Part shown: positions 11,407 to 54,793 of the stretch, in pieces
Layout of the letters: every line of letters starts with the position of its first letter
How positions within the stretch are numbered: the first letter of the stretch is position 1
From: Deltaproteobacteria bacterium
Lineage (GTDB): Bacteria; Desulfobacterota; Desulfarculia; Adiutricales; Adiutricaceae
Length of the DNA stretch: 64,000 nt
Reading direction: 5' to 3'
NCBI GenBank assembly: GCA_031276635.1
Contig: JAISMU010000045.1
Span: 2,955 to 66,954, forward strand
Made by a program: the position numbers and the translations under genes
The notes under the pieces: model-generated
What the model was told of the DNA's origin: nothing
What the model saw: only the letters and a program-made list of their open reading frames with translations
The model's database searches: none

Positions 11407-12717
11407 TTATAAACAAGCCTGACTTTGGCGCGTTAAATTGGGCCAACGGTAACGAATTTCGCCCCCGACCAGGGTCAAAACGGCCCGACCCCGAAATTTC
11501 CGGCCCTCAAATGGGGTGTTGAGGCCCTTGGAAAATCCTTTTTTGGCCTCATAGATAAATTCCAGCTCAGGATCAACTATAGTAATGTCGGCCGGTCCCC
11601 CAGGAGCCAGCGAGCCGCCAGGGAGTCCCAGCAGCCGGGCGGGGTTTCTGGACATGAGCTCAACTAGCCTGGGGATGGGTAGATCGATTTCCCGGGCTAG
11701 CTCCAGAGCTAGGGGTAGACTAGTTTCCAGGCCAGTTATCCCAAAGGCCGCGTCAATGAATTCCACTTCCTTATCCAGAATGGAGTGGGGGGCGTGGTCA
11801 GTGGCGATGACCGAGATGGTTCCATCCTTTAAAGCTTCGCGTAAAGCCTCGCGGTCGGCCTTGGTCCCCAGGGGCGGGTTCATTTTGGCGGCGGAGTTGT
11901 ATTCGCCTACCGCCTCCTCGGTTAAAAAGAGGTAATGGGGGGCGGTCTCGGCCGAAACCGGCAGTCCCTTGGCCCGGGCTGCCCGAATGAGGCCCACGCC
12001 CTGCTGGGTGGAGACGTGGCAAATGTGGAGGGGCTGGCCCGTCAGCTCCACCAGGGCCAAGTCCCGGAAGATGGCGATCTCCTCGGCCTGAGCCGGAATG
12101 CCCGGCAGACCCAGCCGGGCCGACATCCGGCCCTCTATAATGGCGCCTCCGGCGGCCAGAATTGGGTCTTGGGCGTGACTTAAAGGAAGTAACCCAAAGA
12201 CCTGAGCGTAGTCCAGAATCCGGCGCATGACTTGGCTGTCCGCCACCCAGGAGCCATCATCGGTCACCGCTTTGGCCCCGGCCGCCCGGAGATCTTGGTA
12301 CTCGGAGAGTTCCTTTCCTTGCCGGCCCCTGGTCATGGTGGCGGCCAGACATAACCTCGCCCCGGCGATTTCCTGGGCTCGGGCCAAGAGTCCGGTGATT
12401 AAAGGAGCCGAGTCTAGGGGCGGACTGGTGTTGGGCATGGCCAGAACCGTCGTGAAGCCACCGGCCACAGCGGCGGTCAGGCCACTCTGGAGGTCCTCTT
12501 TGTGCTCCTGGCCAGGCTCTCGGAGGTGGACATGCATGTCAATCAGGCCTGGCAGAACCCAGAGTCCTTGGGCGTCAAGCGCCTGCGGCGCCTCCGGTGG
12601 GCTGAGGTTGGGCTCCACCGCCTTGATCCGGCCCTGGTCTATCCAGATGTCGGCCACTTGGTCCAGCTGACGGGCCGGGTCAATGACCCGACCGCCCTTA
12701 ATGAGGCAACTAATCAT
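11407..12717 (-). CDS. pyrC: dihydroorotase
   Basis: Amidohydrolase metal motif DMHVHLREPG, a later ATDHAPH block, and position immediately downstream of pyrB. SD GCGGAG precedes the ATG. Confidence 0.92.
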   Translation of the reverse strand: MISCLIKGGRVIDPARQLDQVADIWIDQGRIKAVEPNLSPPEAPQALDAQGLWVLPGLIDMHVHLREPGQEHKEDLQSGLTAAVAGGFTTVLAMPNTSPPLDSAPLITGLLARAQEIAGARLCLAATMTRGRQGKELSEYQDLRAAGAKAVTDDGSWVADSQVMRRILDYAQVFGLLPLSHAQDPILAAGGAIIEGRMSARLGLPGIPAQAEEIAIFRDLALVELTGQPLHICHVSTQQGVGLIRAARAKGLPVSAETAPHYLFLTEEAVGEYNSAAKMNPPLGTKADREALREALKDGTISVIATDHAPHSILDKEVEFIDAAFGITGLETSLPLALELAREIDLPIPRLVELMSRNPARLLGLPGGSLAPGGPADITIVDPELEFIYEAKKGFSKGLNTPFEGRKFRGRAVLTLVGGEIRYRWPNLTRQSQACL

Positions 12718-12735
12718 GGCAAACTCCGCTCGTGG

Positions 12736-13695
12736 TTAGACGACCAGGCTCTTGGGCCGTTCTGGGTTATCGACAAGAAGGTACAAAAGAGCCATCCGCA
12801 CGGCCACCCCATTAGTCACTTGATCCAGGATCAGGGATTGGGGGCTGTGATAGACCTCCGGGGTCATTTCCACCCCCTGGTTGACCGGCCCGGGGTGTAG
12901 AACTAGGGCGTCGGGTTGAGCCAAAGCCAGTTTAGCTTGGCTTAGGCCATAAACTCGGGCGTACTCGCGAGCTCCAGGAAACAGTTGGCCAGATTGGCGC
13001 TCCAGTTGGATCCGCAGCATGATGATGACGTCCGCCCCTTCCAAGGCGGGCTCAGGGCGGTGGTAAACCTCGACTCCGTACTCCTCGGAGAGGCTCCGGA
13101 CAAGCATGGAGGGCGGCCCGGCCACAGCGACGCGGGCCCCCAGGGTTCCCAGGCCGATGAGGTTACTGCGGGCGACCCGACTGTGGGCGATGTCACCGAT
13201 TATGGCGACTTTGAGGCCCTCAATCCGACCTTTGGGGCGACGAATAGAAAATAAGTCCAAACGGGCCTGGGTGGGGTGGGCGTGGGCCCCGTCGCCGGCG
13301 TTTAACACCGGGCACCTTAAGCGTTGGCCCAGAAACGACGCGGCCCCGGCGGCGGAGTGGCGGATGACCAGGGCGTCTGGGGCCATGGCCTCAATGTTTT
13401 TAGCGGTGTCTAAGAGAGTCTCACCTTTGGCCATGGAGGAGCCGGAGGAGGAGAGCGACAGGGTGTCGGCCGAAAGCCTTTTGGCGGCCACCTCAAAGGA
13501 GAGCCTGGTGCGGGTGGAATTTTCGTGAAAGAAGAGAACCACCAGCTTGCCGCGCAGGGTGGGGACTTTTTTGATTTCCCGCTCAGAGACCTCTCGGAAG
13601 CTTTCGGCCGCGTCCAGGATGGCCATCAGGTGAGCGACCGAAAGACCCCTTAAGTCAATGAGGTCTTTGGGCCAGGTCAGGTTTTCAGAGAACAT
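12736..13695 (-). CDS. pyrB: aspartate carbamoyltransferase catalytic subunit
   Basis: Carbamoyl-phosphate binding motif STRTRLSFE, a HPTQ block and a HPGP block. 319 aa. Confidence 0.95.
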   Translation of the reverse strand: MFSENLTWPKDLIDLRGLSVAHLMAILDAAESFREVSEREIKKVPTLRGKLVVLFFHENSTRTRLSFEVAAKRLSADTLSLSSSGSSMAKGETLLDTAKNIEAMAPDALVIRHSAAGAASFLGQRLRCPVLNAGDGAHAHPTQARLDLFSIRRPKGRIEGLKVAIIGDIAHSRVARSNLIGLGTLGARVAVAGPPSMLVRSLSEEYGVEVYHRPEPALEGADVIIMLRIQLERQSGQLFPGAREYARVYGLSQAKLALAQPDALVLHPGPVNQGVEMTPEVYHSPQSLILDQVTNGVAVRMALLYLLVDNPERPKSLVV

Positions 13696-13744
13696 GGGAC
13701 ACCTATGCCCAGATTTTGTCGGCCCAAATATTGGTGGGTCCGGT

Positions 13745-13771
13745 CAAAAAAAAACCCCTCGGTTGAAGGGG
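13745..13771 (-). terminator. rho-independent terminator (lepB terminator and/or pyrB leader attenuator)
   Basis: On the minus strand CCCCT/AGGGG forms a stem with a 7-nt loop, followed by a run of 9-10 T (A-run 13745-13754 on the + strand). It lies between the lepB stop and the pyrB start. A second palindrome, GCCAGCGCGCTGGC, is at 13796-13809. Confidence 0.5.
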
Positions 13772-13864
13772 AATAAGAAACATTAAGCGCGAAAGGCCAG
13801 CGCGCTGGCGGGGCAAGGCCACGCTGGTGGGCGTCATTCCGTCCACCGAGACAATTTTTTCCAC

Positions 13865-14539
13865 CTACTCAACTTTTCGCCCCAGGCGCTCAAATCTGAG
13901 TCTTTGGGTAAATGAAAGATCTTTTTCTGGGTTCCAGGACCAGTAAATTCGCCAGGCCTTGCCGCGCAAAAGCGAGGAGCTCACGCAACCCCACATTCTA
14001 GAGTCGTTGGACTGGTCGCGGTTATCGCCCATCATAAAATAACTGTTGGCCGGAACTACGGTGGGTCCGAAGTTGCGATAGTGATTGGGGAGCTCGGTCT
14101 GGCGGTAAAAGGCGTGGGGGTCGGCGATGGGCTTGTCATTAATGTAAATCTGGCTGGCGATGATCTCCACTTTTTCCCCCGGTAGCCCGACCACCCTTTT
14201 GACAAAATCGGTTTTGGGATTTCCCGGGTATTTGAAGACCACCACATCCCATCTCATGGGTTCACCAACTTTTATCCAGACTTTGTTGGTAAATGGATTT
14301 CTCAGTCCATAGGAAAATTTGTTGACTAATACTCGGTCGCCTTCCAGAAAGGTTGGGATCATGGAGCCTGAGGGAATGTGGAAGGCCTGAATTATAAAAG
14401 AACGGATTAACAGGGCCAGAACAATGGACAGGGCGATGATCTTGCCATATTCCCAAATCTGCGTGGTCCAGGGTATGGCGGCCTCGACTTTGGCCTCCGG
14501 GGCTGGTGTGGTCGGAACGGGTTTTTTGGATTTTTTCAT
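13865..14539 (-). CDS. lepB: signal peptidase I
   Basis: Catalytic Ser box (IPSGSMIPT), Lys box (KRVVGLPGE) and the GDNRDQSNDSR box. There is one N-terminal TM helix. Confidence 0.93.
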   Translation of the reverse strand: MKKSKKPVPTTPAPEAKVEAAIPWTTQIWEYGKIIALSIVLALLIRSFIIQAFHIPSGSMIPTFLEGDRVLVNKFSYGLRNPFTNKVWIKVGEPMRWDVVVFKYPGNPKTDFVKRVVGLPGEKVEIIASQIYINDKPIADPHAFYRQTELPNHYRNFGPTVVPANSYFMMGDNRDQSNDSRMWGCVSSSLLRGKAWRIYWSWNPEKDLSFTQRLRFERLGRKVE

Positions 14540-15327
14540 AATTTTAATTAATTATTAGTTGACATTGCTTTATTTTTCTTTATGAAGAAAAGGTTAAAAG
14601 CGAAAAAAAATAAAACGGATAAAATTAAAAGCAAATATTGTTTTTTAATCCAAAAACCGATCTTAAGGCCTTCTACCAACCTTCTGGTCCAGAAAATCAG
14701 CAAATTTAAAGAATAAGCTTGATTACCAGTAAAAAAAATATAAGCAATCCAAAATATAGTAATTTTTAACCAAGGACCTTATCTCCTAGATTATTTTGGA
14801 GGCCAGGCCCAAAAAGGTCAAAACAGCATAACACAAATAAAAGAAAAAAAGAGCTTTTTTCCGCCGCCAGTCTGGCCAGGTGGTATTCTCTGGTCATGGG
14901 CCGGATTAGGTGGGCGGAACATTGGAATTATATGAATAAATATAAAAAAAGTCAAGGTTTTTAAGGTCTTGAGCCATACTGGGAGCTTTAACTTGTCTTG
15001 AAACTCTCCCAACAAACTTTTTCTAACTATTTGAACTTTTATTACTAATAAATATAATAATTTATAAAATAATTATTATAAATAATAATTTAATAATTAA
15101 AATTACATAATAATCTTAACAATTTAATGTAATGTCTTCTTGAAATGCAAGTCAAGAGACTTTTGCTAATTTAATCGCTCCTGCCAAGGGAACGGGAAAA
15201 ATTTAAGGGTATTTGCCAATCCCAAGGTTATCGGAGTATACTCCAAAGAAATCATGGCTCCAAAAAAACCGAGCTCGGCTGGTTCAGCCGGGAGAAGGGT
15301 GGCTTATTTTGGGGGAAGGAAGAGAAA

Positions 15328-15603
15328 ATGGCCAGCGATGATGATATCACCATGGAAGAGGCCAGGGCGGCTTTAGAGGACCCGGTTAAGGGTAGCCTGC
15401 GGGTTTTGAAGGCCCTGGGCCGGCAGCGGGACATCTTTCGGGACCAGCTGGAAAACGGGGCGATTCGGTTGGAGGCTTCCAATGACCTGGAGACGGTGGC
15501 CGCCGAGGCGGCTTTGGCTGATTATACCCAAGCCGCCCAGGCTGAGGGGGAGCGGGTTCCCAAAATCGCCATTGTCCGGCCCAAGGTCTTTGAGTGGAAG
15601 TGA
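15328..15603 (+). CDS. hypothetical acidic small protein
   Basis: 91-aa ORF in GC-rich DNA with an SD (GGAAGGAAGAG) upstream of the ATG. No recognisable family. Confidence 0.45.
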   Translation: MASDDDITMEEARAALEDPVKGSLRVLKALGRQRDIFRDQLENGAIRLEASNDLETVAAEAALADYTQAAQAEGERVPKIAIVRPKVFEWK

Positions 15604-17038
15604 GCCGGTCAGTCAGGTTGGCGGTGGGGAAAATTCTCCAGCGTTGTTCGGCCCAAGGGAAGGTCGACCTTTACTTCATTCTTTTTTATCGCGTCTGGCC
15701 TTAAAAAATACAAAATTTAGAAATTAACATGGTAAAACTAGTATCGAGAGTTCTATAAATTATCATCTTTATTCTTTTTCAGGGTATGTTATAAGATTGA
15801 TAGTTTTCTTTAAAGATCTAGTTTGAACAACTCCTTCTTTAAGCTATATAGATACCATCATATATTATTTTTTTAATGTTAAATTTATCTGCAGTTAAAT
15901 AGATAAAATGATCTATTTAACTATATTTTTGCTCCCTTTAGCCCGACCTAGTGGTCTTTTCCTTTCAGAATTCCGTTCAAATTCAGGGATGACTGAGGTC
16001 TTCTTGTTTTTACGCCCTTTTTGTACGCCTCCTGAAGCCAAAGGATTCTTTTGTAGCGGGTTGCCACTTTCAAGAGCGAACGGACAATCTAAGTTCAATC
16101 GCCCGAAGATTTCTTTTTGTTGTATAGTTAGATCTTCTAGAAATACTACATAATAATATATTTTAATCAAATAATTGCATATAACCTTTAAAGTTGAATG
16201 CGCACAGTATTTAGAAGAAGATGGGTGATAATTTAAATATTAATATAATAACTAAAAATAAGATTAATAAAATCAATCTAAGTGTACCTTCTGAATAACT
16301 TCTGAGTGGTGATTAATCTCTGTAAGTTTTATTTAAGCCAAAAATTTGCTTAATATCATGCTTAATATAATATAAAGGTAAAATTAAAATAATATAAAAG
16401 TTATTTAGCGATAAAATAGTAAACTTTATATTTAAAATTCAATATAATTTATCTTCATGCTTTTTATGAAAAATATAATAGTATATAAGTAATTACCAAA
16501 TAGTAATATGTGCGCAAATGAGTGCGCCTTATCAGCGCGGCGTGAGTCCACGTCAGGGAAGCGTCAGTCTCCCTGAAGCCGATCGTAACTGCGTCACCGT
16601 GAAGTGGGGTGGGGAGCGACTAAAAAATGCAACACATTTTAAGAGATTGTCGTCCAAATTCAAATAAAATCGTCTTTAGATAATTTATTGCTATATAATA
16701 TATTTTAGTTTATTTAAGATAATTAAAAATATTAAATATTATATTAGGGTAGGGAAGGGTCTCTCTTCCCCTACCTCCGATCCGGCTTTTCCATCGGCTA
16801 TCTGGTTTTGGGCCGGGTTGAGGGTTGGCCGCCAGGCATAAATTAAAACACCGACCGCTGTTAATTTTGGTCTATTAAATCCCGCCAAATATTGATATAA
16901 TTTATAAATTATTCTATCAGGCCACTCTCAACCAGCCCGAGGATAGCGGGCTAGTTGGCTGGCCCGGACCTTAGGCCGCTTGAGACCTGAGGGTTGTTTC
17001 CGGCCTATGGGCCAGAGTATTGGGGGACGGGGTTTTCT

Positions 17039-17818
17039 ATGAGCGCTTTGGACATAGCCCTGACAGTCATATTGGCTTATTTTTTCATCAGGGGCGTCTT
17101 TCGAGGGCTGGTCAAGGAAATTGTCGGCATCCTGGGCCTTTTTGTGGCTTTTTGGGCCGCCAGCTCCTATTGGTCCATCGGCTCGGAGCAGCTGACCCCT
17201 CTCACGGACAATTCCACTTTTCGGGGCGTGTTGAGCTTTATGATCATTTATATGGTCATCTATTTTCTCATCGGGCTCATCTCAATATTTGTGGATAAGA
17301 TTGTCAAGATGACCATCACCCCCTTTGTGAGCGGCCTCTTTGGGGCTTTTCTGGGGGCCTTGAAGGGAGTCATTCTCTGTGGCATCATCCTGGCCGCGAC
17401 CACGGCTTTTGTGCGTCCCGACCAGGCTTTTTACACCGAATCCACCGTCTGGCCCATTATCCAGCCTTTAACGACCCAGGTCAAAGCCTGGATTCCCACT
17501 GCCCTGCGCCAGTTGATGTCCCCAAGGGAGGCCAGCCGAGTTTTAAGACCGGAAACCGCTTTGACTCAGACTGTGCCGGCGCCTACGGATTTTCAGAGCC
17601 TTAAAAGGATTTTAAGTGATCATGGGAGCCTAATCAGCCAGGGCTGGAAAGAAAAATTCAGTAACCTTACCGGGCCGGAAACCCTTGATCCCGAAGATCT
17701 CAAGCGTTTTATCCGGGATCACCCCAATCTGTTTGCGGTAACCCCCATTCCCCAGCCAGCCCCGCGACCGTCCCCGGTCCCGCCCTCGCCCAGCTGGCCC
17801 AGCCCCGCCCAGGAGTGA
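17039..17818 (+). CDS. cvpA: CvpA-family membrane protein with proline-rich C-terminal tail
   Basis: The N-terminus MSALDIALTVILAYFFIRGVFRGLVKEIVGILGLFVAFW is typical of colicin V production protein CvpA, and there are four TM helices. I prefer the internal ATG at 17039 over the ORF-track start at 16994. Confidence 0.78.
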   Translation: MSALDIALTVILAYFFIRGVFRGLVKEIVGILGLFVAFWAASSYWSIGSEQLTPLTDNSTFRGVLSFMIIYMVIYFLIGLISIFVDKIVKMTITPFVSGLFGAFLGALKGVILCGIILAATTAFVRPDQAFYTESTVWPIIQPLTTQVKAWIPTALRQLMSPREASRVLRPETALTQTVPAPTDFQSLKRILSDHGSLISQGWKEKFSNLTGPETLDPEDLKRFIRDHPNLFAVTPIPQPAPRPSPVPPSPSWPSPAQE

Positions 17819-21547: not shown

Positions 21548-22781
21548 TCCAGGGTTATACGCGGACTGGCCCTCGCTTTTAAAGGACCGGCGTCTGCTAC
21601 TAATAGTTACAGGTGGGGTGGCCGCCTTCCGGGCCGTGGATCTGGCTCGGCGCTATTTAAGGGCCGGGGCCCAGGTCCGGGTGGCCATGACCGAGGCCGG
21701 GACCAGGTTTGTGACGCCGTTGACTTTTGAGGCTTTGACCCACCAAAGTTGCGTCTGGGATATGTGGTCCCGGCCTCAGGCCGAGATAGGTCACGTGGCC
21801 TGGTCTGAGTGGGCTGAAGCCGTAGTGGTGGCTCCGGCCACGGCTAATTTTCTGGCTAAATGCGCCCAGGGTTTAGCCGATGACTTCGCCAGCTGCCTGA
21901 TGTTGGCCCACGAGGGTCCCAAATTGATGGCCCCGGCCATGAACACGGGTATGTGGTTAAATCCGGCTACCCAAGCCAATGTCAGGCTTTTGATGGAGCG
22001 AGGCCTAGAGGTCATGGTTCCTCCGTGCGGTCGGTTGGCCTCGGGTCGGATCGGGCCTGGCCGCCTCCCTCACCCCAAGGCTATTCTGCGCCGGACCGCC
22101 TGGCTGCTGGGCCCCAAACCCTTGAAGGACAAGGTCGTCGTGGTCACCGCCGGAGCCACCTGGGAAAGCTGGGATGACATCCGTTACCTCTCCAACCGCT
22201 CCAGCGGCCAGATGGGTCTGGCCTTGGCTCAGGCGGCTTGGCTGATGGGAGCCCGAGTTATTTTGATCGCCGGGCCTAGCCTGGAGGAACCTCGGTGGAG
22301 CGGGGAGGGCTTTGATTTGATCCGGGTTGAGACCACCCAGCGCATGCTGGAGGCGGTCTTAAAGAGTTTTCCGTCCGTGGATGTTTTGGTCATGAGCGCG
22401 GCTCCGGCTGACTTTCGGCCCCGCCGGGTGGCGGGAAAAATCAAAAAGGATCAGCTGGATCAGACTTCCCTTGTCCTGGAGCAAACTCCAGATATCTTAA
22501 AAACTCTCAGCCAGCGTGGTCAGGCTCCTCATCAGCTAGTGGTGGGTTTCGCGGCTGAGAGCGAGGAGCTCTTGCCCCGGGCCCGAGCGAAATTGGTCGA
22601 CAAGGGCTTGGATTTTATCGTGGCTAACCAGGCCGGCGGCCCGCGCAGCGCTTTTGGCGCGCCGGACACCCAGGTCTGGCTTTTAAGCCGGGACGGCGAG
22701 GAGTTGGAGATTGGGCCGGGGCCCAAGTTTGGGGTGGCCTGGGCCTTGTGGGAAAAGCTGGTCGAAAAAATCAATAGTTAA
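21540..22781 (+). CDS. coaBC: bifunctional phosphopantothenoylcysteine decarboxylase / phosphopantothenate-cysteine ligase
   Basis: Flavoprotein N-domain (LLLIVTGGVAAFRAVDLAR, PAMNTGMW) and CoaB C-domain (VTAGATWESWDDIRYLSNRSSG, DFIVAN). I prefer the TTG at 21540, which gives about 413 aa. The ORF-track start at 21450 would overlap the preceding gene by 98 nt. Confidence 0.86.
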   Translation: MSNPGLYADWPSLLKDRRLLLIVTGGVAAFRAVDLARRYLRAGAQVRVAMTEAGTRFVTPLTFEALTHQSCVWDMWSRPQAEIGHVAWSEWAEAVVVAPATANFLAKCAQGLADDFASCLMLAHEGPKLMAPAMNTGMWLNPATQANVRLLMERGLEVMVPPCGRLASGRIGPGRLPHPKAILRRTAWLLGPKPLKDKVVVVTAGATWESWDDIRYLSNRSSGQMGLALAQAAWLMGARVILIAGPSLEEPRWSGEGFDLIRVETTQRMLEAVLKSFPSVDVLVMSAAPADFRPRRVAGKIKKDQLDQTSLVLEQTPDILKTLSQRGQAPHQLVVGFAAESEELLPRARAKLVDKGLDFIVANQAGGPRSAFGAPDTQVWLLSRDGEELEIGPGPKFGVAWALWEKLVEKINS

Positions 22782-23600
22782 AGAAAAGGCTGCGTTTGGA
22801 AAAGTTTGGTTTTTTCGCCAATGGCTTTTAAACAAATTTTCGCAAATTTCTGAGCGCCGCCGATTGACCATCATCCTTGAGCCAGTTTTAACTTAACCGG
22901 TGGAAGGCGACTGATCCTTCTTCAGCGTTCAGAGGGTTAAAACCCGACTGGCTCACCGAGTAACGGGCTAATTTCAGGAAGGTTATTTTATCTCAGGGAG
23001 GCGACTTTTTCGTCGACGCCTGGGCATTCTCAGGGGCTTCAGCTTAGCGCCGCTTGGTGGTGATTTGGGGCATTTCTTTTCCCAACAAAATTAAGGCCCA
23101 ATTTAGCGACTTGTAAATGTTCAATTGATTCTGACCACCCTCGACGACCCAACTTCTGACTTCCTCTTTATTAGTTCCAACTTATTAATCGATATAATTG
23201 TTAATTATAGTACTTTATTTAATGATTTAAAATAATATTATGGTTGCGGCGGCCCAATCCGCGTCAGAGTTGGGGGTGAGTGTCTTTCTTCCTCTATGAG
23301 GTGAGAGTCAAGTCCCTCTAATGTCAGGAGTAGCGATCCAGATGGACCACGAGCTAGGTGAGGTCTTCCGTGAGGGGGACTTTGAATCGTTAGTAGGGAA
23401 AAATTAGGCCAGCTAATTAAGCGATGAAAATTATTAAATAGGGTTGTAGACGTTGTAAAAATAAGCGGAAGACTATATTCAGAGTTATTATTAAATATAA
23501 ATTAATTAAAATTAAATTTCAAGGTATTATACAGATATTTGTAGCCGATAATTTTTTTGGAATTTAGGTTATTGAATGATTTGGGGTCAGAGCGGAATAA

Positions 23601-23636
23601 AAAAAAAGAAAAACCCGTTGAAAACGGGTTTTTCTG
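23601..23636 (-). terminator. rho-independent terminator downstream of dfx (potentially bidirectional)
   Basis: AAACCCGTT-GAAA-AACGGGTTT hairpin flanked by an A-run on one side and a T-run on the other. It lies 20 nt beyond the dfx stop. Confidence 0.65.
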
Positions 23637-23656
23637 GAATAGATTCAGGTCAAGGC

Positions 23657-24083: not shown

Positions 24084-24659
24084 TTATATGAGCCAGCCCA
24101 GAACCTCAAAGTAGGCCTTGGGATGGTTGCAGGCCCGACAGGCGTCCGGGGGCTCGGTTCCCTCGTGGATCCAGCCGCAGTTGCGACAACGCCAGGTCAC
24201 GGGCTTGGGTTGTTTAAACATGGTTCCAGTCTTGATCGCCTCGAGCAGCTTATTGAAGCGATGCTCATGATATTTTTCGGCGATGGCGATATTTTCCATG
24301 ATACCGGCCACTTCGTCAAAGCCTTCCTCGCGGGCGATTTTGGCGAAGCCGGGGTACATGGCGGTCCACTCATGGTTCTCGCCGCCAGCCGCCGCCGTCA
24401 GGTGGGTGACGACATCGGCCTTGAGGCCGGACGGGAAAGAGCCAGTAATAGTGGCCTCACCTCCCGGCAGGAGCTTAAAAAGCCGGCTGGCGTGCTCCTT
24501 TTCCTGGTCAGCGGTTTCCTGGAAAATAGAGGAAACCAGCATGTACCCCTCGTTCCTGGCCACTGAGGAGGCTAGGGTGTAGCGGTTACGGGCCTGGGAC
24601 TCGCCAGCGAAGGCGGTCAGTATGTTGATTTCAGTTTTTGAGCCTTTAAGGGTAGCCAT
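24084..24659 (-). CDS. rbr: rubrerythrin
   Basis: Diiron four-helix motifs (GESQARNRY, EKEHA, E..H) plus a C-terminal rubredoxin-like CRNCG...CRACNHP. The internal ATG at 24659 gives the canonical ~191 aa. Confidence 0.92.
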   Translation of the reverse strand: MATLKGSKTEINILTAFAGESQARNRYTLASSVARNEGYMLVSSIFQETADQEKEHASRLFKLLPGGEATITGSFPSGLKADVVTHLTAAAGGENHEWTAMYPGFAKIAREEGFDEVAGIMENIAIAEKYHEHRFNKLLEAIKTGTMFKQPKPVTWRCRNCGWIHEGTEPPDACRACNHPKAYFEVLGWLI

Positions 24660-25374
24660 GAAGCCTCCGAGCTTGGTCATGAACCAAGTCGTTAAAATAT
24701 TTTGGAACAATGTTTTTGAGAGCCTTTGGGGCAGGAAAAAGAACTAACGACAGATAATTAAATCCCAAAAGCCTTGAGGACAAAACAGACCAGGAATCCG
24801 TGATTCGGATTATAAAATCCAAGATCCTTGAAGTATACGAAAACTGGACCTAATTTGTCAAATTATTAAGTTTTGAAAATTGGCGTATTAAATCAGAAAA
24901 CAGCCGATTTTTATTTGAAAAGGGGGGACTCAAGTAAAATTAGACCAAAATATTTTCCCTTGTCGGCCTAGGATGGACTCTTTTTCTTAGATATTGACTG
25001 ACCGGCCAAGTGGTCGTTGGGGAGCGGCTATAACTAAGGAGTTATTTCTCAGAGGAGTCGGCCAAGCCTGAGAACTAAGATCTGACGGTCAGGCTGACCA
25101 TAGATCCGCTTTCTGGTCTGATTGACTCAGCCAACGACCAGGAGAGGACTAGAGATGAAGAAAAAACTAGAATATATCGAAAAAGTATCAGTTTCTGGAA
25201 AGAGAATCTGTTATAATTATTTCAACGGGAAGGAAAGCTTAAAAAATAAGTCAGCATGAAAAAGTCGGTTTTTTTCAGGTCAGCCTCGCGGTCAAAGTTG
25301 GCCGATCGCGGAGACAGATTAATGGGTTTCTCGGAGGGCGGGTCCCTGGAGGGGCCCGCAAAGAGAGGGGCGTT

Positions 25375-26403
25375 TTGTCAAATATTATATTCGCCAATTC
25401 CTCTATGTGGATGGCTGAAGCCGCTAAGGATAATTCCTTTATGTGGCTCGAAGGCGCCGCTACTGTTAATGATAAATCTGACCGCCCGGCCTTGAGCGCC
25501 CAGGAAGTCATGGTTGAGGCTGGCTTGAATTGGGAGGTGGAGAAAAGACCGGCCTATTTTCGGGACTCTGAGGGTAACTTTAATTGTGTCCCCAACCATT
25601 TCGTGGTCACGCGTTCAGACGATCTTAGTCCGCTGGGGATAGTCGGAAAAGGTTATGAATTATTTCAAAATAGAGAATTATTCGATTTTATCGAGACATT
25701 CCTATCGATCACGAAGTCTAAATTAGACACATGTGGCTTTATTGATAATGGGGCCATGATCTGGGCAACCGCGGTCGCCGAAACTCAAGAGTTTTTGCCT
25801 GGGGACCCCAGCCAGGAGTATTTTCTGATCTCCAATAATCATGACGGCAACCGCGGGGTTCAGGTGGGTTTCATGTACTCCCGGCTGGTCTGTTCCAACG
25901 CTTTGTTGTCATCTCTGAAAAAAAGCGACCATTATAGTGTCCGGCATGTCCCTAGCCTGAGATACTACACTAACGCGATCCTGGATCTTATGAGCGCGCA
26001 CCGGGCTCACTCGAAAGAATTCGCCGAGATCATGAAAACCTTGATCCAAAAGCCTTTACCCCTTGAAACCATTAAGGATTTGACCGAAAAGTTGACCAGG
26101 TCCAGAAAATCCTCCCGCCTGGAGTTGCTCGACTTTTCAGATGATGAGGTGTCGGACACTTGGACGCCAGGCGAGCCTTACGCCAAGATCCTGGATTTAG
26201 TTGATCATGGCCTAGGGACGGAAATCCCGGGGGTTAAAGGGACGGCTTATGGTTTTGTGCAGGCGGTGATCGAGTACGTGGATCATCATCGGATAGTTAG
26301 AAAGGGTAACCGGAGCGAGGCTGAGGCTAAGTTTAAGGCCGCCCTGTTTGGTCAGGGGGCCTTTATGAAGAAAAAAGCCATTGAGCTGGCTTTGGCCGCC
26401 TGA
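25375..26403 (+). CDS. DUF932 / phage-plasmid-like protein (family typical of ICEs and plasmids)
   Basis: EAGLNWEVEKRP near the N-terminus, then NHFVVTRSDD...LGIVGKGYELFQN, GAMIWA and NNHDGNRGVQVGF blocks characteristic of DUF932. The exact start is uncertain (25375 TTG, 25405 or 25441 ATG). Confidence 0.78.
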   Translation: MSNIIFANSSMWMAEAAKDNSFMWLEGAATVNDKSDRPALSAQEVMVEAGLNWEVEKRPAYFRDSEGNFNCVPNHFVVTRSDDLSPLGIVGKGYELFQNRELFDFIETFLSITKSKLDTCGFIDNGAMIWATAVAETQEFLPGDPSQEYFLISNNHDGNRGVQVGFMYSRLVCSNALLSSLKKSDHYSVRHVPSLRYYTNAILDLMSAHRAHSKEFAEIMKTLIQKPLPLETIKDLTEKLTRSRKSSRLELLDFSDDEVSDTWTPGEPYAKILDLVDHGLGTEIPGVKGTAYGFVQAVIEYVDHHRIVRKGNRSEAEAKFKAALFGQGAFMKKKAIELALAA

Positions 26404-27548
26404 AATAAAACGCATGATTTTGTTATTTTATGACGCCATCACAAAAAGTCATTCTTTTATGAATTATTTGTGTTAAAATATTGAAATTTCTATTTTATTT
26501 TTGACCTCAGTTTAAAAACCAGAGTTTGGCCAAATAACTTAAGTGTTGGTCTGGCTGGCGGGCTGGACAATTTGTGACAATTATATAATATACAGTTATC
26601 GTTTGATAAGTCATTAGTTTTTACAGAAAAAGGACTTTCTTTCTTGTAATCTAAATTCAATTTTTTCCATTTAAAAATAGCGTATATAGGAATGCATATT
26701 TTAAAAATATGTATTATAATGATAATTATGTTCTTAAAAAACAAAATAATATAGAAAATGTAATTAAAGAAGTTGTAAAAAACAAAAATAACAAAAAAGA
26801 CGATTATGATTTTCCCAATCGTTTATTGATGATTTAAAAAATTTAATATATATAGCTGATGAATTCTGTAAAGAATCGGATATATTGACAACTGAATCAG
26901 TTAAAAATCATTGCCAAAAAAATTGTCAAATTTTACTATAATAATAAAATTAGTTACAATAAATTTTTTTATAGCGAGTAGTTTCCTAAAAACAGTTTGA
27001 TTTGATGAGTAGTTAGTCTTCTTCCATTTAGTTTAATTCTGCTGTTTCCTTATCAATCGACTATCTATACCTAAATTTATATATAGCCAAGAAAATATTC
27101 TGTATAAACTTAACAAAAAAAATTATTAGTTTTTAAGTTTAAAAATTATAAGTTCAGTTAATAGTTTCTCTTGAATTAAGGCAAGATAATTTTTCAAAAA
27201 TAACTTTATATCCACTAAATAACCGCGATTCCTTCATAATCGAGTTGGTTTTCCCTGGCCTACCAGGAGGCCAGCTTAGGCTAGGAATTTGGCCTGTCAT
27301 TTTACTTTGGCTGACTCAGGCTGGGCTCATGACCGCGCTCTTTCGGCTGAGGGTTTTGTGGCCTTGGAATAAAGTTAAAATTATCAAATAAATTATATAA
27401 TATTTAATAATATACTGCAATTTCATAATGTTATATAACAGGTTAGTCCTCTAAGGAAATCACTGATTTCGACTGGCCAGGCTTCCCCTTTGGCTTGGGT
27501 CAGAGCTTGGCCTATCAGTTGATCATCTATATTTTGGGCCTATAGCGT

Positions 27549-27572
27549 TTGACCCACTAATTGTCGTATAAT
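27549..27572 (+). promoter_or_regulatory. conserved promoter-like block upstream of rlmE-like paralog 1
   Basis: TTGACC-N12-TATAAT. The same TTGACC-N6-ATTGT-N-GTATAWT block recurs upstream of paralog 2 (28475-28498). The 12-nt spacing is too short for a canonical sigma70 -35/-10 pair, so the function is uncertain. Confidence 0.3.
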
Positions 27573-27609
27573 AATCACATCCTGTAGCATGCGAAAAAAG
27601 GTGAGGATT

Positions 27610-28191
27610 ATGCCTGTCCCTAAAAAGATTCCCAGAGCCATTATCACCGCCCATGACAGATTGGTCACGCTTGATGAAACTTTTCAGATATTCCACCCTG
27701 GCCAAAAAATCGTGATTTTGGGCTGTACGGATGGATTTTGGATTTTATACGCCGCGGTTAGGCTTATGGAAGTTGGCCAAATCATCGGGGTGGACTCGGA
27801 CCTGAGCACTATTGAGAAATTCGCCGAGCACGTTGAGCTGGAGAAGGCGGATATATTAGACGGAGACCAAGCCGCCCTCACGCGGTTCAAGAAGGCCCAT
27901 GGCCAATTGGCGAACGGGGTTCTGTCTGAGCTTTTACCCAAACGTTCCCGCAATCGGGAAGAGAACCAGGCCCGGAGTCTAGAGCAGGTCAAAGCGGCCT
28001 GGTCTTGGACCAAGGAATTGCTGGTCGAAGGTGGTTTTTTCCTCTTTAAGGCTCTACAAAGTGAGGCGGTGGACAACTTTATTGGTGATTTATCGAAAAA
28101 GTTCAATCAAATAACCCGCATCAACACTCAGCCGTCAAAAACTGGGCAGGAAATTTGTATTCTCTTACGGGGATTCAGGCTGAAGTCATAA
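27610..28191 (+). CDS. divergent RlmE/FtsJ-like methyltransferase-fold protein, paralog 1
   Basis: Aligns by eye along its whole length with the bona fide RlmE at 30576 (PGQK..LGC..G.W.LY, GVD, VLSEL.P, ARSLE..KAAWSW..ELL.EGGFFLFK, GQEI..L.RG). SD AGGTGAGG precedes the ATG at 27610. Confidence 0.75.
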   Translation: MPVPKKIPRAIITAHDRLVTLDETFQIFHPGQKIVILGCTDGFWILYAAVRLMEVGQIIGVDSDLSTIEKFAEHVELEKADILDGDQAALTRFKKAHGQLANGVLSELLPKRSRNREENQARSLEQVKAAWSWTKELLVEGGFFLFKALQSEAVDNFIGDLSKKFNQITRINTQPSKTGQEICILLRGFRLKS

Positions 28192-28293
28192 TCGTTTTTA
28201 GTCAAGGAAACTTCGACAAGAGTCATTTTATTAAAAATTTTTTTGGCTAACATCTCGTAATTAATATATTTAGTTTGAGAAAACCTTGTCTGA

Positions 28294-28344
28294 CCTGGTT
28301 TTCAAGAGCCTCAGGCCCAGGGCTTGAGACTCTTGAAAACCAGG
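28294..28344. repeat. long near-perfect inverted repeat (hairpin)
   Basis: CCTGGTTTTCAAGAG (28294-28308) pairs with CTCTTGAAAACCAGG (28329-28343), and the inner arms pair further (CTCAGGCC / GGCTTGAG, one mismatch). There is no U-tract. Confidence 0.55.
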
Positions 28345-28474
28345 GCGTCAGAGCTATCAGACAACTGCCCGCTCCGGCGACATAAAACAACTCAAATCTG
28401 ACTTTGAGTCTGAATCAATCATTAAAAGCTGAATCTATCTTTGTTTAGCTCACAAGAATTAGACCCTCTGGTAA

Positions 28475-28498
28475 TTGACCTGCAAATTGTTGTATATT
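28475..28498 (+). promoter_or_regulatory. conserved promoter-like block upstream of rlmE-like paralog 2
   Basis: TTGACC-N12-TATATT, homologous to the block at 27549-27572. Confidence 0.3.
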
Positions 28499-28544
28499 TT
28501 GTCTTAAATTGTGGTGGCAATAATATTTTTTGAACGGAGAAGTT

Positions 28545-29129
28545 ATGGCCGATGAAAACAAGGACCGTCAAGACTATATCATCGCCCACGATCGGCTGGT
28601 CAAGCTTGACGATTTATACGCCCTTTTCCAACCAGGACAAAAAGTTCTGATCTTGGGTTGCGCTCAAGGATATTGGCGTTTATACGCGGCTGAGGAGATC
28701 CATGAGGACGGCTTGGTCATTGGGGTGGATAATGATCTGAGCGACCTTGAGCCCCCAGCCAGTAATGTCCAGCTGGTCAAGGCCGACATCCTCTCAAAAA
28801 AGAAAGCCACCACCCTTAAGCGGCTAATGAAAACGCTGGGCCCGGGAGCGAACGCGGTTCTGTCGGAATTGTTTCCCCAACTTACTGGTGACCGCCAGGT
28901 GGATCAAGCCCAGAGCCTTGAGCTGGTCAAGGCGGCTTGGTCTTGGGCCAAAGAATTGTTGATTGAGGGGGGGTTTTTCTTGTTCAAGCTTTTACATAGC
29001 CAGGTGGCGGAAGAGTTTTTAGAAAGCTTAAGGCCCTGTTTTGAGCGATCGACCCGGCTCAAGACCGAGCCCAATGAGTTCGGCCAGGAAATTTACGTTC
29101 TTTTCCGGGGCTTTAAAAAAAAGCCATAG
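28545..29129 (+). CDS. divergent RlmE/FtsJ-like methyltransferase-fold protein, paralog 2
   Basis: Same architecture as paralog 1 and colinear with RlmE. SD GGAGA precedes the ATG at 28545. Confidence 0.75.
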   Translation: MADENKDRQDYIIAHDRLVKLDDLYALFQPGQKVLILGCAQGYWRLYAAEEIHEDGLVIGVDNDLSDLEPPASNVQLVKADILSKKKATTLKRLMKTLGPGANAVLSELFPQLTGDRQVDQAQSLELVKAAWSWAKELLIEGGFFLFKLLHSQVAEEFLESLRPCFERSTRLKTEPNEFGQEIYVLFRGFKKKP

Positions 29130-29209
29130 GCCGATTGTGACTAGCTGGCTTGAGGCAGTTGATGGCTTGGGAGGTAAGGAAACTCCAATTGCGCGGGGCC
29201 GGCAGGCTC

Positions 29210-29345
29210 TGATGTCTTCGAAAAAACCCTGGTTTTTAAAATTGTGCCTCAAATAAAATTAGTGATTTCAATATGTTACCACAGTAATTAGTGAAAGTAT
29301 GACTTTTTTCGGAATAATCAGGCTCTGAGGCAGTTAATAGATAAT
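29210..29345 (+). repeat. dispersed non-coding repeat R1, copy Z
   Basis: TGATGTCTTCGAAAAAACCCTGG...AAAATTGTG..CAAATAAAATTAGTGATTTCAATATGTTACCACAGTAATT closely matches 54670-54793. It also matches 60975-61094 in reverse complement. Confidence 0.7.
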
Positions 29346-29801
29346 TTTATATTAAAATATAGTTATAAATATTATGTCCATATGTTTTAAGCAGGTAAAT
29401 GAATTTAAAATATATTTATTAATAATTATTATAGATTAGTGGTTTAGGACATTCAGGCTTGGGACTGTATTTATAGGGCCTGGGACTAAAACTGTGAGAT
29501 TTCACCTCGTCTGATGGTGGTGGTCCTTTTGGAGAAGGGATTTTTGATGACTTTACAATTAAAAACAGCCTTCGCTCTGGCCTGTCTTTTCTAAACTCTT
29601 CTTGCTCTAAGATTTGGGCCTTCAGGGCATATGGTGAATATAGACAGACGAAAATTTTATCAGTGAAGTATCATTGCAAGCTGGGATTAGGGAAACTGGT
29701 CATTATGGCGCGCTCGCAAAAAGTTTTTCCAGATTAAAATTTTCAGATTCCCCTTTCTGGTAAATCGATAAAATTCGATAAGTAACCAATAAATCCTTTA
29801 A

Positions 29802-30248
29802 AATCAAATTGGGTTTTTAACTCCAAATATATTATCTAGCGATTTACTTTTTATTGTTCAAAACGCTACTTTATACCATTTTAGAATTTTAACGTCAATT
29901 GTTCATATGTATTGGACTCGGGCTATATGTGGACGTTTTGGTATGGAGATTCGTTATTCAAAAGATATTGTTTACAATAATTTTCCTTGGCCTCAGCTAA
30001 GTGATAATCAGAAAAACTCAATAGAAAATTTCGCTTAACAAGTTTTGGATGTCCGCGCTCATTTCACTAATAGTTGCCTGGCTGATTTATATGATCAGTT
30101 GAGCATGCCGCCGGATCTTTTATCGGCGCATCGAAACCTTGATAAAGCGGTTATGAGGGCTTATGGATTCTCCATTAAAAACACAACTGAACAAGAAATA
30201 GTTATTAGTTTGGTTAAAATGCATCAATCGCTAGTAAGTATTTTATAA
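29802..30248 (+). pseudogene. C-terminal remnant of an MmeI-like type IIG restriction-modification / DNA methyltransferase gene
   Basis: The frame reads IGFLTPNILSSDLLFIVQNATLYHFRILTSIVHMYWTRAICGRFGMEIRYSKDIVYNNFPWPQLSDNQKNSIENFA-stop-QVLDVRAHFTNSCLADLYDQLSMPPDLLSAHRNLDKAVMRAYGF. This is the conserved C-terminal region of MmeI-family enzymes. There is an in-frame TAA at 30036-30038 and no upstream catalytic part. Confidence 0.62.
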
Positions 30249-30575
30249 TAAATGTGATTATAAGAAAATTTAGTTTTTAATATTTATATAAGTCAAAATA
30301 TTATATATTATTTGTTGTGTTAATAATTATAAAATATTGTTACTCTACATTATTATTTCAATAATCTATCTCTTTTCTTCAACTAAAAAGCCTTAAAACC
30401 AAATAATTTATAAGATTAGAAGTATAGCGTTCAAATTTCATAAATTATTTTTGGTCGCGTGTGGCCCAGATGAATCCAAGCGAACCGAGTTTCAGGCCAA
30501 AACTTTGATTTTTGTGATAAATTAAGCCAGCCGTTCCAACTTTTTCGAGGACACTAAAGGCCTCATCGAGGGCTT

Positions 30576-31190
30576 ATGACCATCAAGGACCGCTCCCGCC
30601 TGGACGACCACTATAGCCAAAAAGCCCGGAGTCTGGGTTATCCGGCCCGCTCGGTCTTTAAACTGGCCGAGTTTGACCAGAGTTATCGGTTGTTCCGGCC
30701 TGGACAGAAAGTTTTGGACCTGGGTTGCGCCCCGGGCAGCTGGACCTTGTACGTGGCGGAGAAGGTTGGGGCCACTGGCCGGGTGGTAGGTTTGGACCTG
30801 GCTATTCCCCCGGGGGCGTTTCCCGGCTGGGTTCGGCTGGGGGCGGTGGATTTGCTGGCCGGGGAGGAAGCTTTTTCGAAGGTGGCTGAGGAGTTAGGCG
30901 GCTTGGCTCAGGCGGTTTTGTCCGACCTGGCCCCCAAAACCACTGGACGCCGGGAGATCGACCAGGCCCGGAGCCTGGAGTTGGTCGGGGCGGCCTGGGC
31001 TTGGGCTCAGAAGTTGCTGGAGCCGGGGGGGCTATTTCTGTTCAAGGTTTTTCAAAGCCCGGAGGCGGACGCTTTCATTAACCAGCTCAAAGCGGGTTTT
31101 CAGAGCCTTATCCGCTTGAAACCCCAGGCCTCTCGGAAAAATAGCCAGGAGATTTTTGTCCTGGCCCGGGGCATGGGGCTTAAACCTTAG
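30576..31190 (+). CDS. rlmE: 23S rRNA (uridine-2'-O)-methyltransferase RlmE/FtsJ
   Basis: Intact N-terminal region (DDHYSQKARSLGYPARSVFKL), SAM motif I (VLDLGCAPGSW), and the K-D-K-E tetrad positions (VFKL, LSDLAP, LFKVF, SQEIFV). Confidence 0.9.
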   Translation: MTIKDRSRLDDHYSQKARSLGYPARSVFKLAEFDQSYRLFRPGQKVLDLGCAPGSWTLYVAEKVGATGRVVGLDLAIPPGAFPGWVRLGAVDLLAGEEAFSKVAEELGGLAQAVLSDLAPKTTGRREIDQARSLELVGAAWAWAQKLLEPGGLFLFKVFQSPEADAFINQLKAGFQSLIRLKPQASRKNSQEIFVLARGMGLKP

Positions 31191-32532
31191 GGTTGTTGGC
31201 CGGGCCCGCCGCCAGTTGGGCCCGGGCCTCCACGGTCAGGGCGTGGGCGGTCAAACCCTCAGCCCGGGCCAGGGCGCTGATGGTCGGGGTCAGCCCGGCC
31301 AAGGCCTTTTGGCTCAATTGCTGGAAAGTCATTTTCCGCAAAAAGGCGTCGGTGGAAAGACCCGAAAAAGAGCGAGCCGCCCCTCCGGTCGGGAGGACGT
31401 GGTTGGGCCCGGTGGCGTAATCCCCGCCAGGAATGGGCGAGTGGGGGCCCAGGAAGACCGAGCCGGCGTTTTGAACCTGGCCCAGGTGACTTAAAGGGTC
31501 CGCAATGTAGAGTTGGAGATGCTCAGGGGCGTACTCGTTGGCCAGGGCCAAAGCCTCGCCCAGATCCGCGGCTACCAGGATGGCCGCGTTTTTCAGGCTC
31601 TCCTGGATTATGGGGGCTCGGTCCAGGTCGGCGAGTTTTTCTTGGGCGATTGTCGCGACTCGCTGGGCCAGTTCCCGGGTGGTGGTCACCAGAACCGCCG
31701 CCGCCTCGGGGTCGTGTTCCAGCTGGGCTAGAAAATCCCAGGCCAGAATGGTGGGGTCGGCGCTCTGGTCGGCGATGATGAAGCCCTCGGAAGGCCCGGC
31801 CGGCAGATCGATATCGACCTCCCCATAGACGGCCAGTTTGGCGGCCGTGACCCAGGAGCTACCCGGCCCGACGATCTTATCGACCTTTGGGAGCCCCAAA
31901 AGGCCATAGGCCAACGAGCCGATGGCCCAAGCTCCCCCCAGCTTGTAAATCCTGGTGGCCCCGGCCAGATGGGCGGCGGCCACAATCGTCGGCCGGGCCA
32001 GAAATCCAGGGCCCGGCGGGGTGACGGCCACAATTTCCTGGACCCCGGCCACCTGGGCCGGGGCGATGTTCATGAGAGCGCTGGAGGGATAGGCGGCCCG
32101 GCCCCCGGGGATGTAGACCCCCACCCGGGCCAGGGGCCGGGTGACCCGACCAGCCAAAAGGCCCGGCTGGACCTCGGTCAGCCACATGGCCCGCTCCAGC
32201 TGGGCCGCGTGAAACTTTTTAATATTGTTGAGGGCGGTCTGGAGAGCCTGGACGAGCTCGGGGCTGACCTCATTTAAGGCTCGCTCTAGCTCCTCAGGCC
32301 CGACCAAAAGGTCCTCGGGGGTCAGGTCGGGTTTTAGGGGGCCGTATTCCCGGGCCAGCTCAGCCAAAGGTTCGGCCCGCAGCCGATCTAGAATGAGCCG
32401 GGTCTCGGCCTGAGCGGCGTGGAAGGCGACCGCGGATCTGGCCAGGATCTTCTGGCGCCGGGCCGGGGTCAGTTCCTTAATGGTTTCCACCGGGATAGTG
32501 GGGTTATGAGGGGGGGAGCTCATTTTACTCAC
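31180..32532 (-). CDS. hisD: histidinol dehydrogenase
   Basis: Conserved blocks YIPGGRAAYPSS, IVGPGSSWVTAAK, QLEHDPEAAAVL and EHLQL. 450 aa. The 3' end overlaps the rlmE 3' end convergently by 11 nt. Confidence 0.95.
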   Translation of the reverse strand: MSKMSSPPHNPTIPVETIKELTPARRQKILARSAVAFHAAQAETRLILDRLRAEPLAELAREYGPLKPDLTPEDLLVGPEELERALNEVSPELVQALQTALNNIKKFHAAQLERAMWLTEVQPGLLAGRVTRPLARVGVYIPGGRAAYPSSALMNIAPAQVAGVQEIVAVTPPGPGFLARPTIVAAAHLAGATRIYKLGGAWAIGSLAYGLLGLPKVDKIVGPGSSWVTAAKLAVYGEVDIDLPAGPSEGFIIADQSADPTILAWDFLAQLEHDPEAAAVLVTTTRELAQRVATIAQEKLADLDRAPIIQESLKNAAILVAADLGEALALANEYAPEHLQLYIADPLSHLGQVQNAGSVFLGPHSPIPGGDYATGPNHVLPTGGAARSFSGLSTDAFLRKMTFQQLSQKALAGLTPTISALARAEGLTAHALTVEARAQLAAGPANNPKV

Positions 32533-54669: not shown

Positions 54670-54793
54670 TGACGTCTTCGCAAAAACCCTAATTTTAAAA
54701 AATTGTCTTAAAATAAAATCAGTGTTTACAATATGTTACCAAACGTAATTTCTGAGAAGTTGACTTATTGCGAGGGCGTCAGTTAATAACTAG
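54670..54793 (+). repeat. dispersed non-coding repeat R1, copy X
   Basis: TGACGTCTTCGCAAAAACCCTAATTTTAAAAAATTGTCTTAAAATAAAATCAGTGTTTACAATATGTTACCAAACGTAATT matches copy Z (29210-29345). Confidence 0.7.

Follow-up and report, generated by a model that had tools for sequence, protein, structure and literature searches.

The 64,000-nucleotide stretch analysed here (the window; contig JAISMU010000045.1 of the Deltaproteobacteria bacterium assembly GCA_031276635.1, designated C187, positions 2955-66954) carries three genes of the FtsJ/RlmE family: a canonical rlmE and, upstream of it on the same strand, two paralogs which we designate P1 and P2. RlmE, also termed FtsJ or RrmJ, is the 2'-O-methyltransferase acting on U2552 of the 23S rRNA. 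It is a nearly universal, single-copy enzyme of ribosome maturation. The K-D-K-E tetrad of its active site is a textbook invariant of 2'-O-methyltransferases. In both paralogs, this tetrad, the methionine side of the S-adenosylmethionine (SAM) pocket, and the N-terminus have been altered. We consider it rather probable that P1 and P2 are neofunctionalised or non-canonical descendants of RlmE which no longer methylate U2552; within this reading, a pseudoenzyme is somewhat more likely than an enzyme with new chemistry. Judged from the residues that have been kept, an adenosyl ligand (SAM, S-adenosylhomocysteine, or a related compound) is probably still bound, and it is the altered residues that suggest the loss of U2552 methylation and the acquisition of any new role.

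The source is a metagenome-assembled genome (MAG) of 3.48 Mb in 192 contigs, which is 94% complete and contains exactly three FtsJ/RlmE copies, all of them intact open reading frames (ORFs) on one shared strand. P1 (ORF 27589-28191, plus strand, likely start at 27610) encodes 193 amino acids with an isoelectric point (pI) of 8.5 and is the more diverged copy, and P2 (ORF 28530-29129, plus strand, likely start at 28545) encodes an acidic protein of 194 amino acids (pI 5.5). Both likely starts match public gene calls of 193 and 194 amino acids and are preceded by Shine-Dalgarno-like sequences. The canonical rlmE (30576-31190, plus strand, 204 amino acids) has its K-D-K-E tetrad, motif I, and N-terminal motif all intact, has kept its synteny with hisD (31180-32532, minus strand), and shows 66-72% identity to the lone rlmE of most congeners, the value for the congener G005 being 60%. 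An arrangement of one canonical gene and two colinear copies had been proposed in an earlier note made from the sequence alone, and it is borne out by the ORFs and by the scores for the Pfam family FtsJ (PF01728; gathering threshold 24.1 bits), which amount to 64.2 bits for P1, 90.8 bits for P2, and 151 bits for rlmE. P1 and P2 share 51-54% identity, and either one is 39-46% identical to the canonical copy. The equivalog models TIGR00438 (cut-off 300 bits; P1 72, P2 95, host canonical rlmE 160) and NF008390 (cut-off 269 bits; 48, 64, and 129, respectively) provide a weak test in this lineage, as the canonical rlmE also falls short of them. RlmE proteins of this clade are under-called at the equivalog thresholds of NCBIfam, despite the intact catalytic and SAM motifs of the canonical protein. 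In PADLOC, no defence-protein match was obtained for P1 or P2 beyond the generic methyltransferase domain, the sole match being mad2 with 28 bits over that domain, for which the canonical rlmE scores higher (36 bits), and the search of the paralogs against PHROGs likewise gave generic methyltransferase matches only.

The catalytic residues were compared by aligning the paralogs with 120 orthologs and, separately, with 263 family members including E. coli RlmE, whose numbering is used in the following. The column of K38 holds lysine in 256 of the 263 members and arginine in none, and both paralogs have arginine. D124 is aspartate in all 263 members, glutamate being absent from this column, and is replaced by glutamate in both paralogs (LSELLP in P1, LSELFP in P2), as the earlier note had recognised. 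K164 and E199 are retained. The tetrad of P1 and P2 is thus R-E-K-E, as opposed to K-D-K-E in RlmE, and this holds in Pfam, phmmer, MAFFT, and BLAST alignments. The assignment of the first tetrad position in the earlier note to the K/T of LVK/TLD did not hold up: every alignment tool gives arginine in both paralogs, K38 being aligned to the arginine of AHD-R-LV (Pfam profile position 8, phmmer versus 1EIZ, MAFFT, BLAST) and the K/T of LVK/TLD to E. coli E41. A placement of K38 on the latter residue requires a gap of three residues and could still apply, residues i and i+3 being located on the same helix face; P1 has no lysine at the first tetrad position under either alignment. RlmE mutants altered at K38 and D124 are without methyltransferase activity (PMC8854578).

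Motif I of RlmE, hh-D-h-G-x-x-P-G-x-W, is broken in both proteins, with IVILGCTDGFW in P1 and VLILGCAQGYW in P2 versus VLDLGCAPGSW in the canonical copy. D57, which is aspartate or glutamate in 263 of 263 members, is isoleucine in both; P62, a proline in 263 of 263, is aspartate in P1 and glutamine in P2; and position 64 (glycine or serine), which carries a small residue across the family, is phenylalanine in P1 and tyrosine in P2. The loss of the aspartate and the proline had been described before, and the alignment with the 263 members leaves neither motif I nor the tetrad intact. Further changes (given as P1/P2) concern A126 (alanine or serine in 261 of 263; L/F), P190 (proline in 251; T/T), R194 (arginine in 249; S/N), and S197 (serine in 258; G/G), and the KPxxSRxxS block of RlmE has become (K/N)TxP...G. 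The paralog states checked at such positions are absent from all 263 family members. Retained in both paralogs are G59, G63, and W65 of motif I, D83, D99 in its A-D-I context, S123, and P127, besides the two tetrad residues named above, and the blocks KAAWSW, EGGFFLFK, and GQEI are common to P1 and P2. The residues that line SAM or form hydrogen bonds with it and the tetrad of Trm7 and RlmE have been listed, D83 and D99 being the acidic residues that bind the ribose and the adenine of SAM (PMC6847430). Mapping of these residues shows that P1 and P2 have kept the adenosine side of the pocket intact (D83, A98, D99, I100). The methionine/methyl side has been rebuilt, as the equivalents of P54, S56, D124, and A126 and the serine before the catalytic lysine have changed, and here bulky residues (F/Y/L) replace polar or small ones in both paralogs.

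The N-terminal motif of RlmE, which comprises about 28 residues (KDRxRLDDHYSxKARxxGYPARSV), has been replaced in P1 and P2 by 16 unrelated residues. The earlier note had assumed that about 20 N-terminal residues were lost; the loss is real, the net figure being about 12 residues. The invariant arginine and serine before the catalytic lysine are histidine and aspartate in both paralogs, accompanied by a 12-residue gap, and no remnant of the motif was found upstream of the paralogs. The pI values of 116 RlmE orthologs are uniformly basic (8.4-9.9), a range that includes P1 and not P2. An AlphaFold model of P2, the only paralog modelled, was obtained from an alignment that included P1 and 120 homologs, and has a mean predicted local distance difference test score (pLDDT) of 91 and a predicted template modelling score (pTM) of 0.87; from the single sequence, the pLDDT was 37. 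The top PDB matches of the model are 1EIZ, Spb1, 3DOU, and MRM2 with template modelling (TM) scores of 0.74-0.86, the best match being FtsJ 1EIZ with a TM score of 0.82. For P2, a class I Rossmann-like fold superposable on FtsJ is predicted.

Despite these changes, both genes bear the marks of purifying selection. Neither P1 nor P2 contains a stop codon or frameshift in about 194 codons. For P1 versus P2, dN is 0.37-0.39 and dS 1.1-1.8, so that the ratio of the two, omega, is 0.22-0.33 and not near 1 (NG86, maximum likelihood (ML), and LWL85 estimates; YN00 was unusable owing to saturation). The omega of the orthologs is 0.04-0.16, that of the paralogs being 2-5 times higher. The identity of P1 and P2 at the first, second, and third codon positions is 0.65, 0.73, and 0.46. 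In neutral simulations run to the observed nucleotide divergence of 39%, in which indels were ignored, no more than 0.05% of the runs ended with an open frame. RlmE-type constraint is largely gone from the paralogs, since of the 64 columns with a conservation of 90% or more in the orthologs, P1 has retained 33 and P2 has retained 42. P1 and P2 are nevertheless 66% identical to each other in conserved columns versus 38% in variable ones (Fisher p = 0.013), and they share nine identical derived states at near-invariant columns (R to H, S to D, K to R, D to I, D to E, F to L, P to T, A to P, and S to G). The shared derived states and the column pattern point to a functional shift before the duplication that gave rise to P1 and P2, followed by new constraint. 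The argument of the earlier note that the conserved blocks reflect selection rather than decay is in line with all of these results, and to judge from their sequences P1 and P2 are not pseudogenes.

Selection on both genes would also be expected if one or both of them encode active SAM-dependent 2'-O-methyltransferases that act on a new RNA target with arginine and glutamate in place of lysine and aspartate, for example on an rRNA or tRNA nucleotide whose modification gives resistance to a ribotoxin, an antibiotic, or a phage factor. Both tetrad substitutions conserve charge, nothing has changed at K164, E199, D83, and D99 or in the G-x-x-x-G-x-W backbone, a switch of target within the family has precedents in the eukaryotic FtsJ paralogs Trm7, Mrm2, and Spb1, and the genes are located in an accessory hot spot of the defence type (see below). 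We nevertheless regard an active methyltransferase as unlikely, although it is the strongest of the alternatives. Arginine at K38 and glutamate at D124 occur in 0 of the 263 members, which include sampled retargeted subfamilies; the aspartate and the proline of motif I, both invariant in the sample, are lost, and F, Y, and L fill the methionine side of the pocket. Moreover, the N-terminal motif conserved in the aligned RlmE sequences is deleted, and P2 is acidic, unlike every RNA-binding ortholog. The N-terminal motif is conserved in the eukaryotic FtsJ subfamilies, too.

Another explanation starts from the opposite side and takes the copies as functionless duplicates heading to decay, the open frames and the conserved blocks being mere leftovers. 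We hold this to be improbable. Both frames are open at 39% nucleotide divergence, a state that hardly ever survived in the neutral runs even though indels were not counted; divergence at third codon positions greatly exceeds that at second positions, and omega is well below 1; Shine-Dalgarno-like sites and an upstream block unique in the genome are retained in both copies; and the nine identical derived states are found at active-site columns. What decay would account for is the change of a third to half of the near-invariant RlmE positions, the elevated omega compared with the orthologs, the low GC content, the junk-rich surroundings with an MmeI relic and transposon insertions, and the restriction of the pair to one genome.

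As to the origin of the pair, an ML tree places P1 and P2 in a common clade (support 100/99) with a stem of 1.03 substitutions per site inside the RlmE clade of the same genus (99/93). This placement, for which the earlier note had called, is paralleled by the similarity of the paralogs to other RlmE proteins, which drops with taxonomic distance from 130-156 bits within the genus to 93-124 bits within the family and 59-79 bits within the class. In approximately unbiased (AU) tests, neither a position as sister to the host's own copy (p = 0.42) nor one as sister to the genus (p = 0.48) was rejected, and as the tests do not separate these placements, duplication in situ and transfer from a congener are both possible. 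The GC content of the paralogs is 0.49-0.51 and that at third codon positions (GC3) 0.58-0.61, compared with 0.61 and 0.72 for the host rlmE and a GC content of 0.49-0.54 for the rlmE genes of congeners. The paralogs belong to the lowest 12% of the genome's long ORFs by GC (median 0.595); low GC is also typical of the accessory DNA of this genome.

No second pair of this type was found. None of the 94 other genomes of the class that were searched has more than one rlmE copy, so that the triplication which the earlier note had suggested looking for in relatives is absent there. Among 1.84 billion representatives searched exhaustively with HMMER, P1 alone matched below 1e-30, the remainder being ordinary RlmE, and a word-indexed search of 5.8 billion clusters with P2 and with a profile of P1 and P2 revealed no further paralog-type protein. 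No further paralog-type gene was present on metagenome and genome contigs, and phages and plasmids yielded ordinary rlmE only, with 25-32% identity. Bacterial paralogs of RlmE in which the tetrad is altered did not turn up in a literature search.

These results can be combined into the following scenario. An extra copy derived from the genus's own rlmE would have passed through a burst of change in which the N-terminal motif was removed, K-D-K-E was converted to R-E-K-E, the KPxxSRxxS block was altered, the methionine/methyl side of the SAM pocket was replaced (D57I, P62D/Q, G/S64F/Y, A126L/F), and the net positive charge typical of RlmE proteins was removed. The burst would have spared the fold, K164 and E199, and, within the pocket, the side that faces the adenosine (D83, A98-D99-I100). 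A tandem duplication would then have copied the remodelled gene along with about 70 nt of the DNA preceding it, and both copies would have been maintained by purifying selection afterwards. Their most likely mode of action would be a non-catalytic or altered-chemistry role in ligand or RNA binding, either as pseudoenzymes or as enzymes with a new substrate. As accessory genes of a variable island, they may be driven by a cis element of their own that is common to both. The roles considered in the earlier note (a new methyltransferase, a pseudoenzyme, or a decoy) are all still candidates.

Several points weigh against the interpretation of P1 and P2 as RlmE descendants with a new function. A placement of the paralogs deeper in the tree is not formally rejected by the AU test (p = 0.13). 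The evidence for selection comes from the single comparison of P1 with P2, for which dS (1.1-1.8) is nearly saturated, and the pair is a singleton in all collections and originates from a MAG. The structural model of P2 is driven by an alignment of mostly true RlmE sequences and says nothing on the integrity of the pocket. The alignment with the three-residue gap would provide P2 with a lysine at the first tetrad position. Finally, neither K to R nor D to E alters the charge, and with K164 and E199 unchanged, methyl transfer of a residual or altered kind is possible.

The upstream regions of P1 and P2 can be aligned only in a 24-nt block, TTGACCCACTAATTGTCGTATAAT at 27549-27572 (plus strand), 37 nt before the start of P1, and TTGACCTGCAAATTGTTGTATATT at 28475-28498 (plus strand), 46 nt before the start of P2. 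The common pattern, TTGACC-N5-ATTGT-N-GTATAWT, has two occurrences in the 3.48 Mb genome, both at the paralogs. The block had been described as promoter-like in the earlier note. Its presence is confirmed, and it is, on sequence grounds, a common cis element with a putative promoter role; as a canonical sigma-70 promoter it was rejected, the hexamers TTGACC and TATAAT being only 12 nt apart and a sigma-70 scan not having called it. A sigma-54 or sigma-32 promoter was discarded as well, since no fit to the consensus was apparent by eye. The spacers around the paralogs are AT-rich, as stated before (23-40% GC), and contain no Rfam match. Between P1 and P2, a hairpin is located at 28294-28344 with 25-nt arms that are 92% complementary, without a T-run; it belongs to no dispersed repeat and is a possible candidate for a transcript end or an RNA stabiliser.

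P1 and P2 are part of a variable low-GC island of 5.9 kb (24711-30575) between a rubrerythrin gene (24084-24710, minus strand) and rlmE, the GC content of which is 23-52% compared with about 60% in the flanks. Both flanks are syntenic with the congener G002 on one contig of 78 kb. At the same site, G002 carries a different low-GC filler of about 2.9 kb (5150-8077 of its contig C39) without similarity to the island of the window, and the ORFs of this filler have no Pfam match. Upstream of rlmE in G006 (11612-17048 of its contig C113), defence-type genes are found, namely AIPR, DUF4420 (PD-(D/E)XK), and Z1; in G001, G003, and G005 the contig ends less than 1 kb from rlmE. In this genus, rlmE is preceded by a variable hot spot. 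The island of the window also contains a gene for a DUF932 protein of the mobile-element type (25375-26403, plus strand, 342 amino acids; Pfam PF06067, 115 bits; PHROG 1221, E = 1.5e-40) and the relic of an MmeI-family type IIG restriction-modification enzyme (29850-30248, plus strand), which corresponds to the C-terminal approximately 130 residues, is interrupted by an in-frame TAA at 30036-30038, and was recognised by Pfam MmeI_C (67 bits, 30045-30248) and PADLOC REase_MTase_IIG (E = 2.4e-15). Together with the differences between the congeners at this site, these two genes substantiate the mobile-element context noted earlier. A permissive tblastn search of the island gave no third, decayed paralog copy.

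The two paralogs are flanked by inverted copies of a miniature inverted-repeat transposable element (MITE), one at 26416-26534 (plus strand) with a degenerate right end and one at 29209-29327 (minus strand), about 80 nt past the stop codon of P2, with its own target-site duplication CAGAGCC. A composite transposon carrying the pair was considered and rejected: the flanking inverted repeats are independent MITE insertions, as the right copy has its own target duplication, and they do not attest to a joint movement of the pair. The MITE family is about 118 nt long and AT-rich, with terminal inverted repeats TGAYGCCYTCGCAAAAAG...CTTTTTGCGAAGRCRTCA and target-site duplications of 5-8 bp in many copies. 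A third copy in the window is located at about 54670-54772 (minus strand), and at least 58 copies are present genome-wide, which are 70-85% identical and often near contig ends. The family has no Rfam match and no consensus RNA fold. Outside the island, an Rfam match to group II intron D1-D4-6 was obtained at 23309-23534 (plus strand; 59 bits, E = 9e-15), in a low-GC gap (22750-23650) upstream of a desulfoferrodoxin-like gene. The composition of the genome as a whole is strongly bimodal. Its long ORFs have a median GC of 0.595 and a GC3 of 0.73, 13% of the 500-bp windows have less than 40% GC and 5% less than 30%, and intergenic and accessory DNA is far more AT-rich than genes.

According to a bolder proposal, P1 and P2 form a novel type of accessory module, made from a housekeeping ribosome-modification enzyme and used, in a defence hot spot upstream of rlmE, in conflicts with phages or mobile elements. 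The rebuilt site, with a new cluster of histidine, aspartate, and arginine plus the glutamate and a hydrophobic plug at the methionine of SAM, could then catalyse a new reaction, with an adenosyl ligand or RNA as its substrate, or the proteins could mimic RlmE or the A-loop as decoy, sensor, or ribosome protector. In this specific form, we regard the idea as a long shot. An assembly or binning artefact, that is, foreign paralogs or a mis-join at the flanking repeats, is hardly credible even though the source is a MAG, the segment lies between two inverted copies of a dispersed repeat, and the GC of the paralogs is nearer to that of congener rlmE genes than to that of the host copy, since the repeats differ too much for reads to be mis-joined at them, with an identity of only about 75% between the two and of at most 85% to other copies, and the right one is bordered by a target duplication of its own. 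In addition, a single contig of 78 kb carries both island flanks in synteny with a congener, these genes are absent from every other genome and metagenome contig searched, so that there is no donor to confuse, and the sequences of P1 and P2 match nobody's normal rlmE.

If P1 and P2 are indeed RlmE descendants with a new function, they represent a natural example of a housekeeping RNA methyltransferase turned into something else, in which two extra, selected copies within one bacterial genome have undergone the same kind of change in tetrad, N-terminal motif, surface charge, and the methionine side of the SAM pocket. If they bind a ligand or RNA without methylation, RlmE would have given rise to a bacterial pseudo-methyltransferase; if they are active, R-E-K-E would be shown to be able to support catalysis. 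As a single MAG is the only known source of the pair, the practical weight of either outcome is limited.

Among known systems, RlmE itself (1EIZ) is the closest. The paralogs share its Pfam family and predicted fold, are colinear with it over residues 17-194, and have the same D83, D99, K164, E199, G59, G63, and W65; they differ in the tetrad, motif I, the methionine pocket, the N-terminus, the KPxxSRxxS block, and the charge of P2, and they are extra copies in a variable island. Trm7/FTSJ1, Mrm2/FTSJ2, and Spb1/FTSJ3 are likewise duplicated family members with new targets or roles. Spb1 keeps the K-D-K-E tetrad, motif I, and the N-terminal motif. The same is true for Trm7 and Mrm2 (PMC6847430), in contrast to P1 and P2, in which all three have changed. 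For MRM2, the presence of the protein rather than its catalysis matters for the assembly of the mitoribosome subunit, and this dispensable catalysis sets a precedent in the family for a non-catalytic role (PMC8854578). The eukaryotic FtsJ set is ancient, widespread, and often partner-dependent, whereas P1 and P2 are confined to one genome; that they form a heterodimer with each other, as their tandem arrangement and opposite net charge might suggest, is only a guess. METTL14 beside METTL3, DNMT3L, and mtTFB, which is derived from the rRNA dimethylase KsgA, are altered methyltransferase paralogs used as non-enzymes. They resemble P1 and P2 as Rossmann-fold duplicates under selection after loss or remodelling of cofactor-binding or catalytic residues, but they belong to unrelated families and have known partners and functions.

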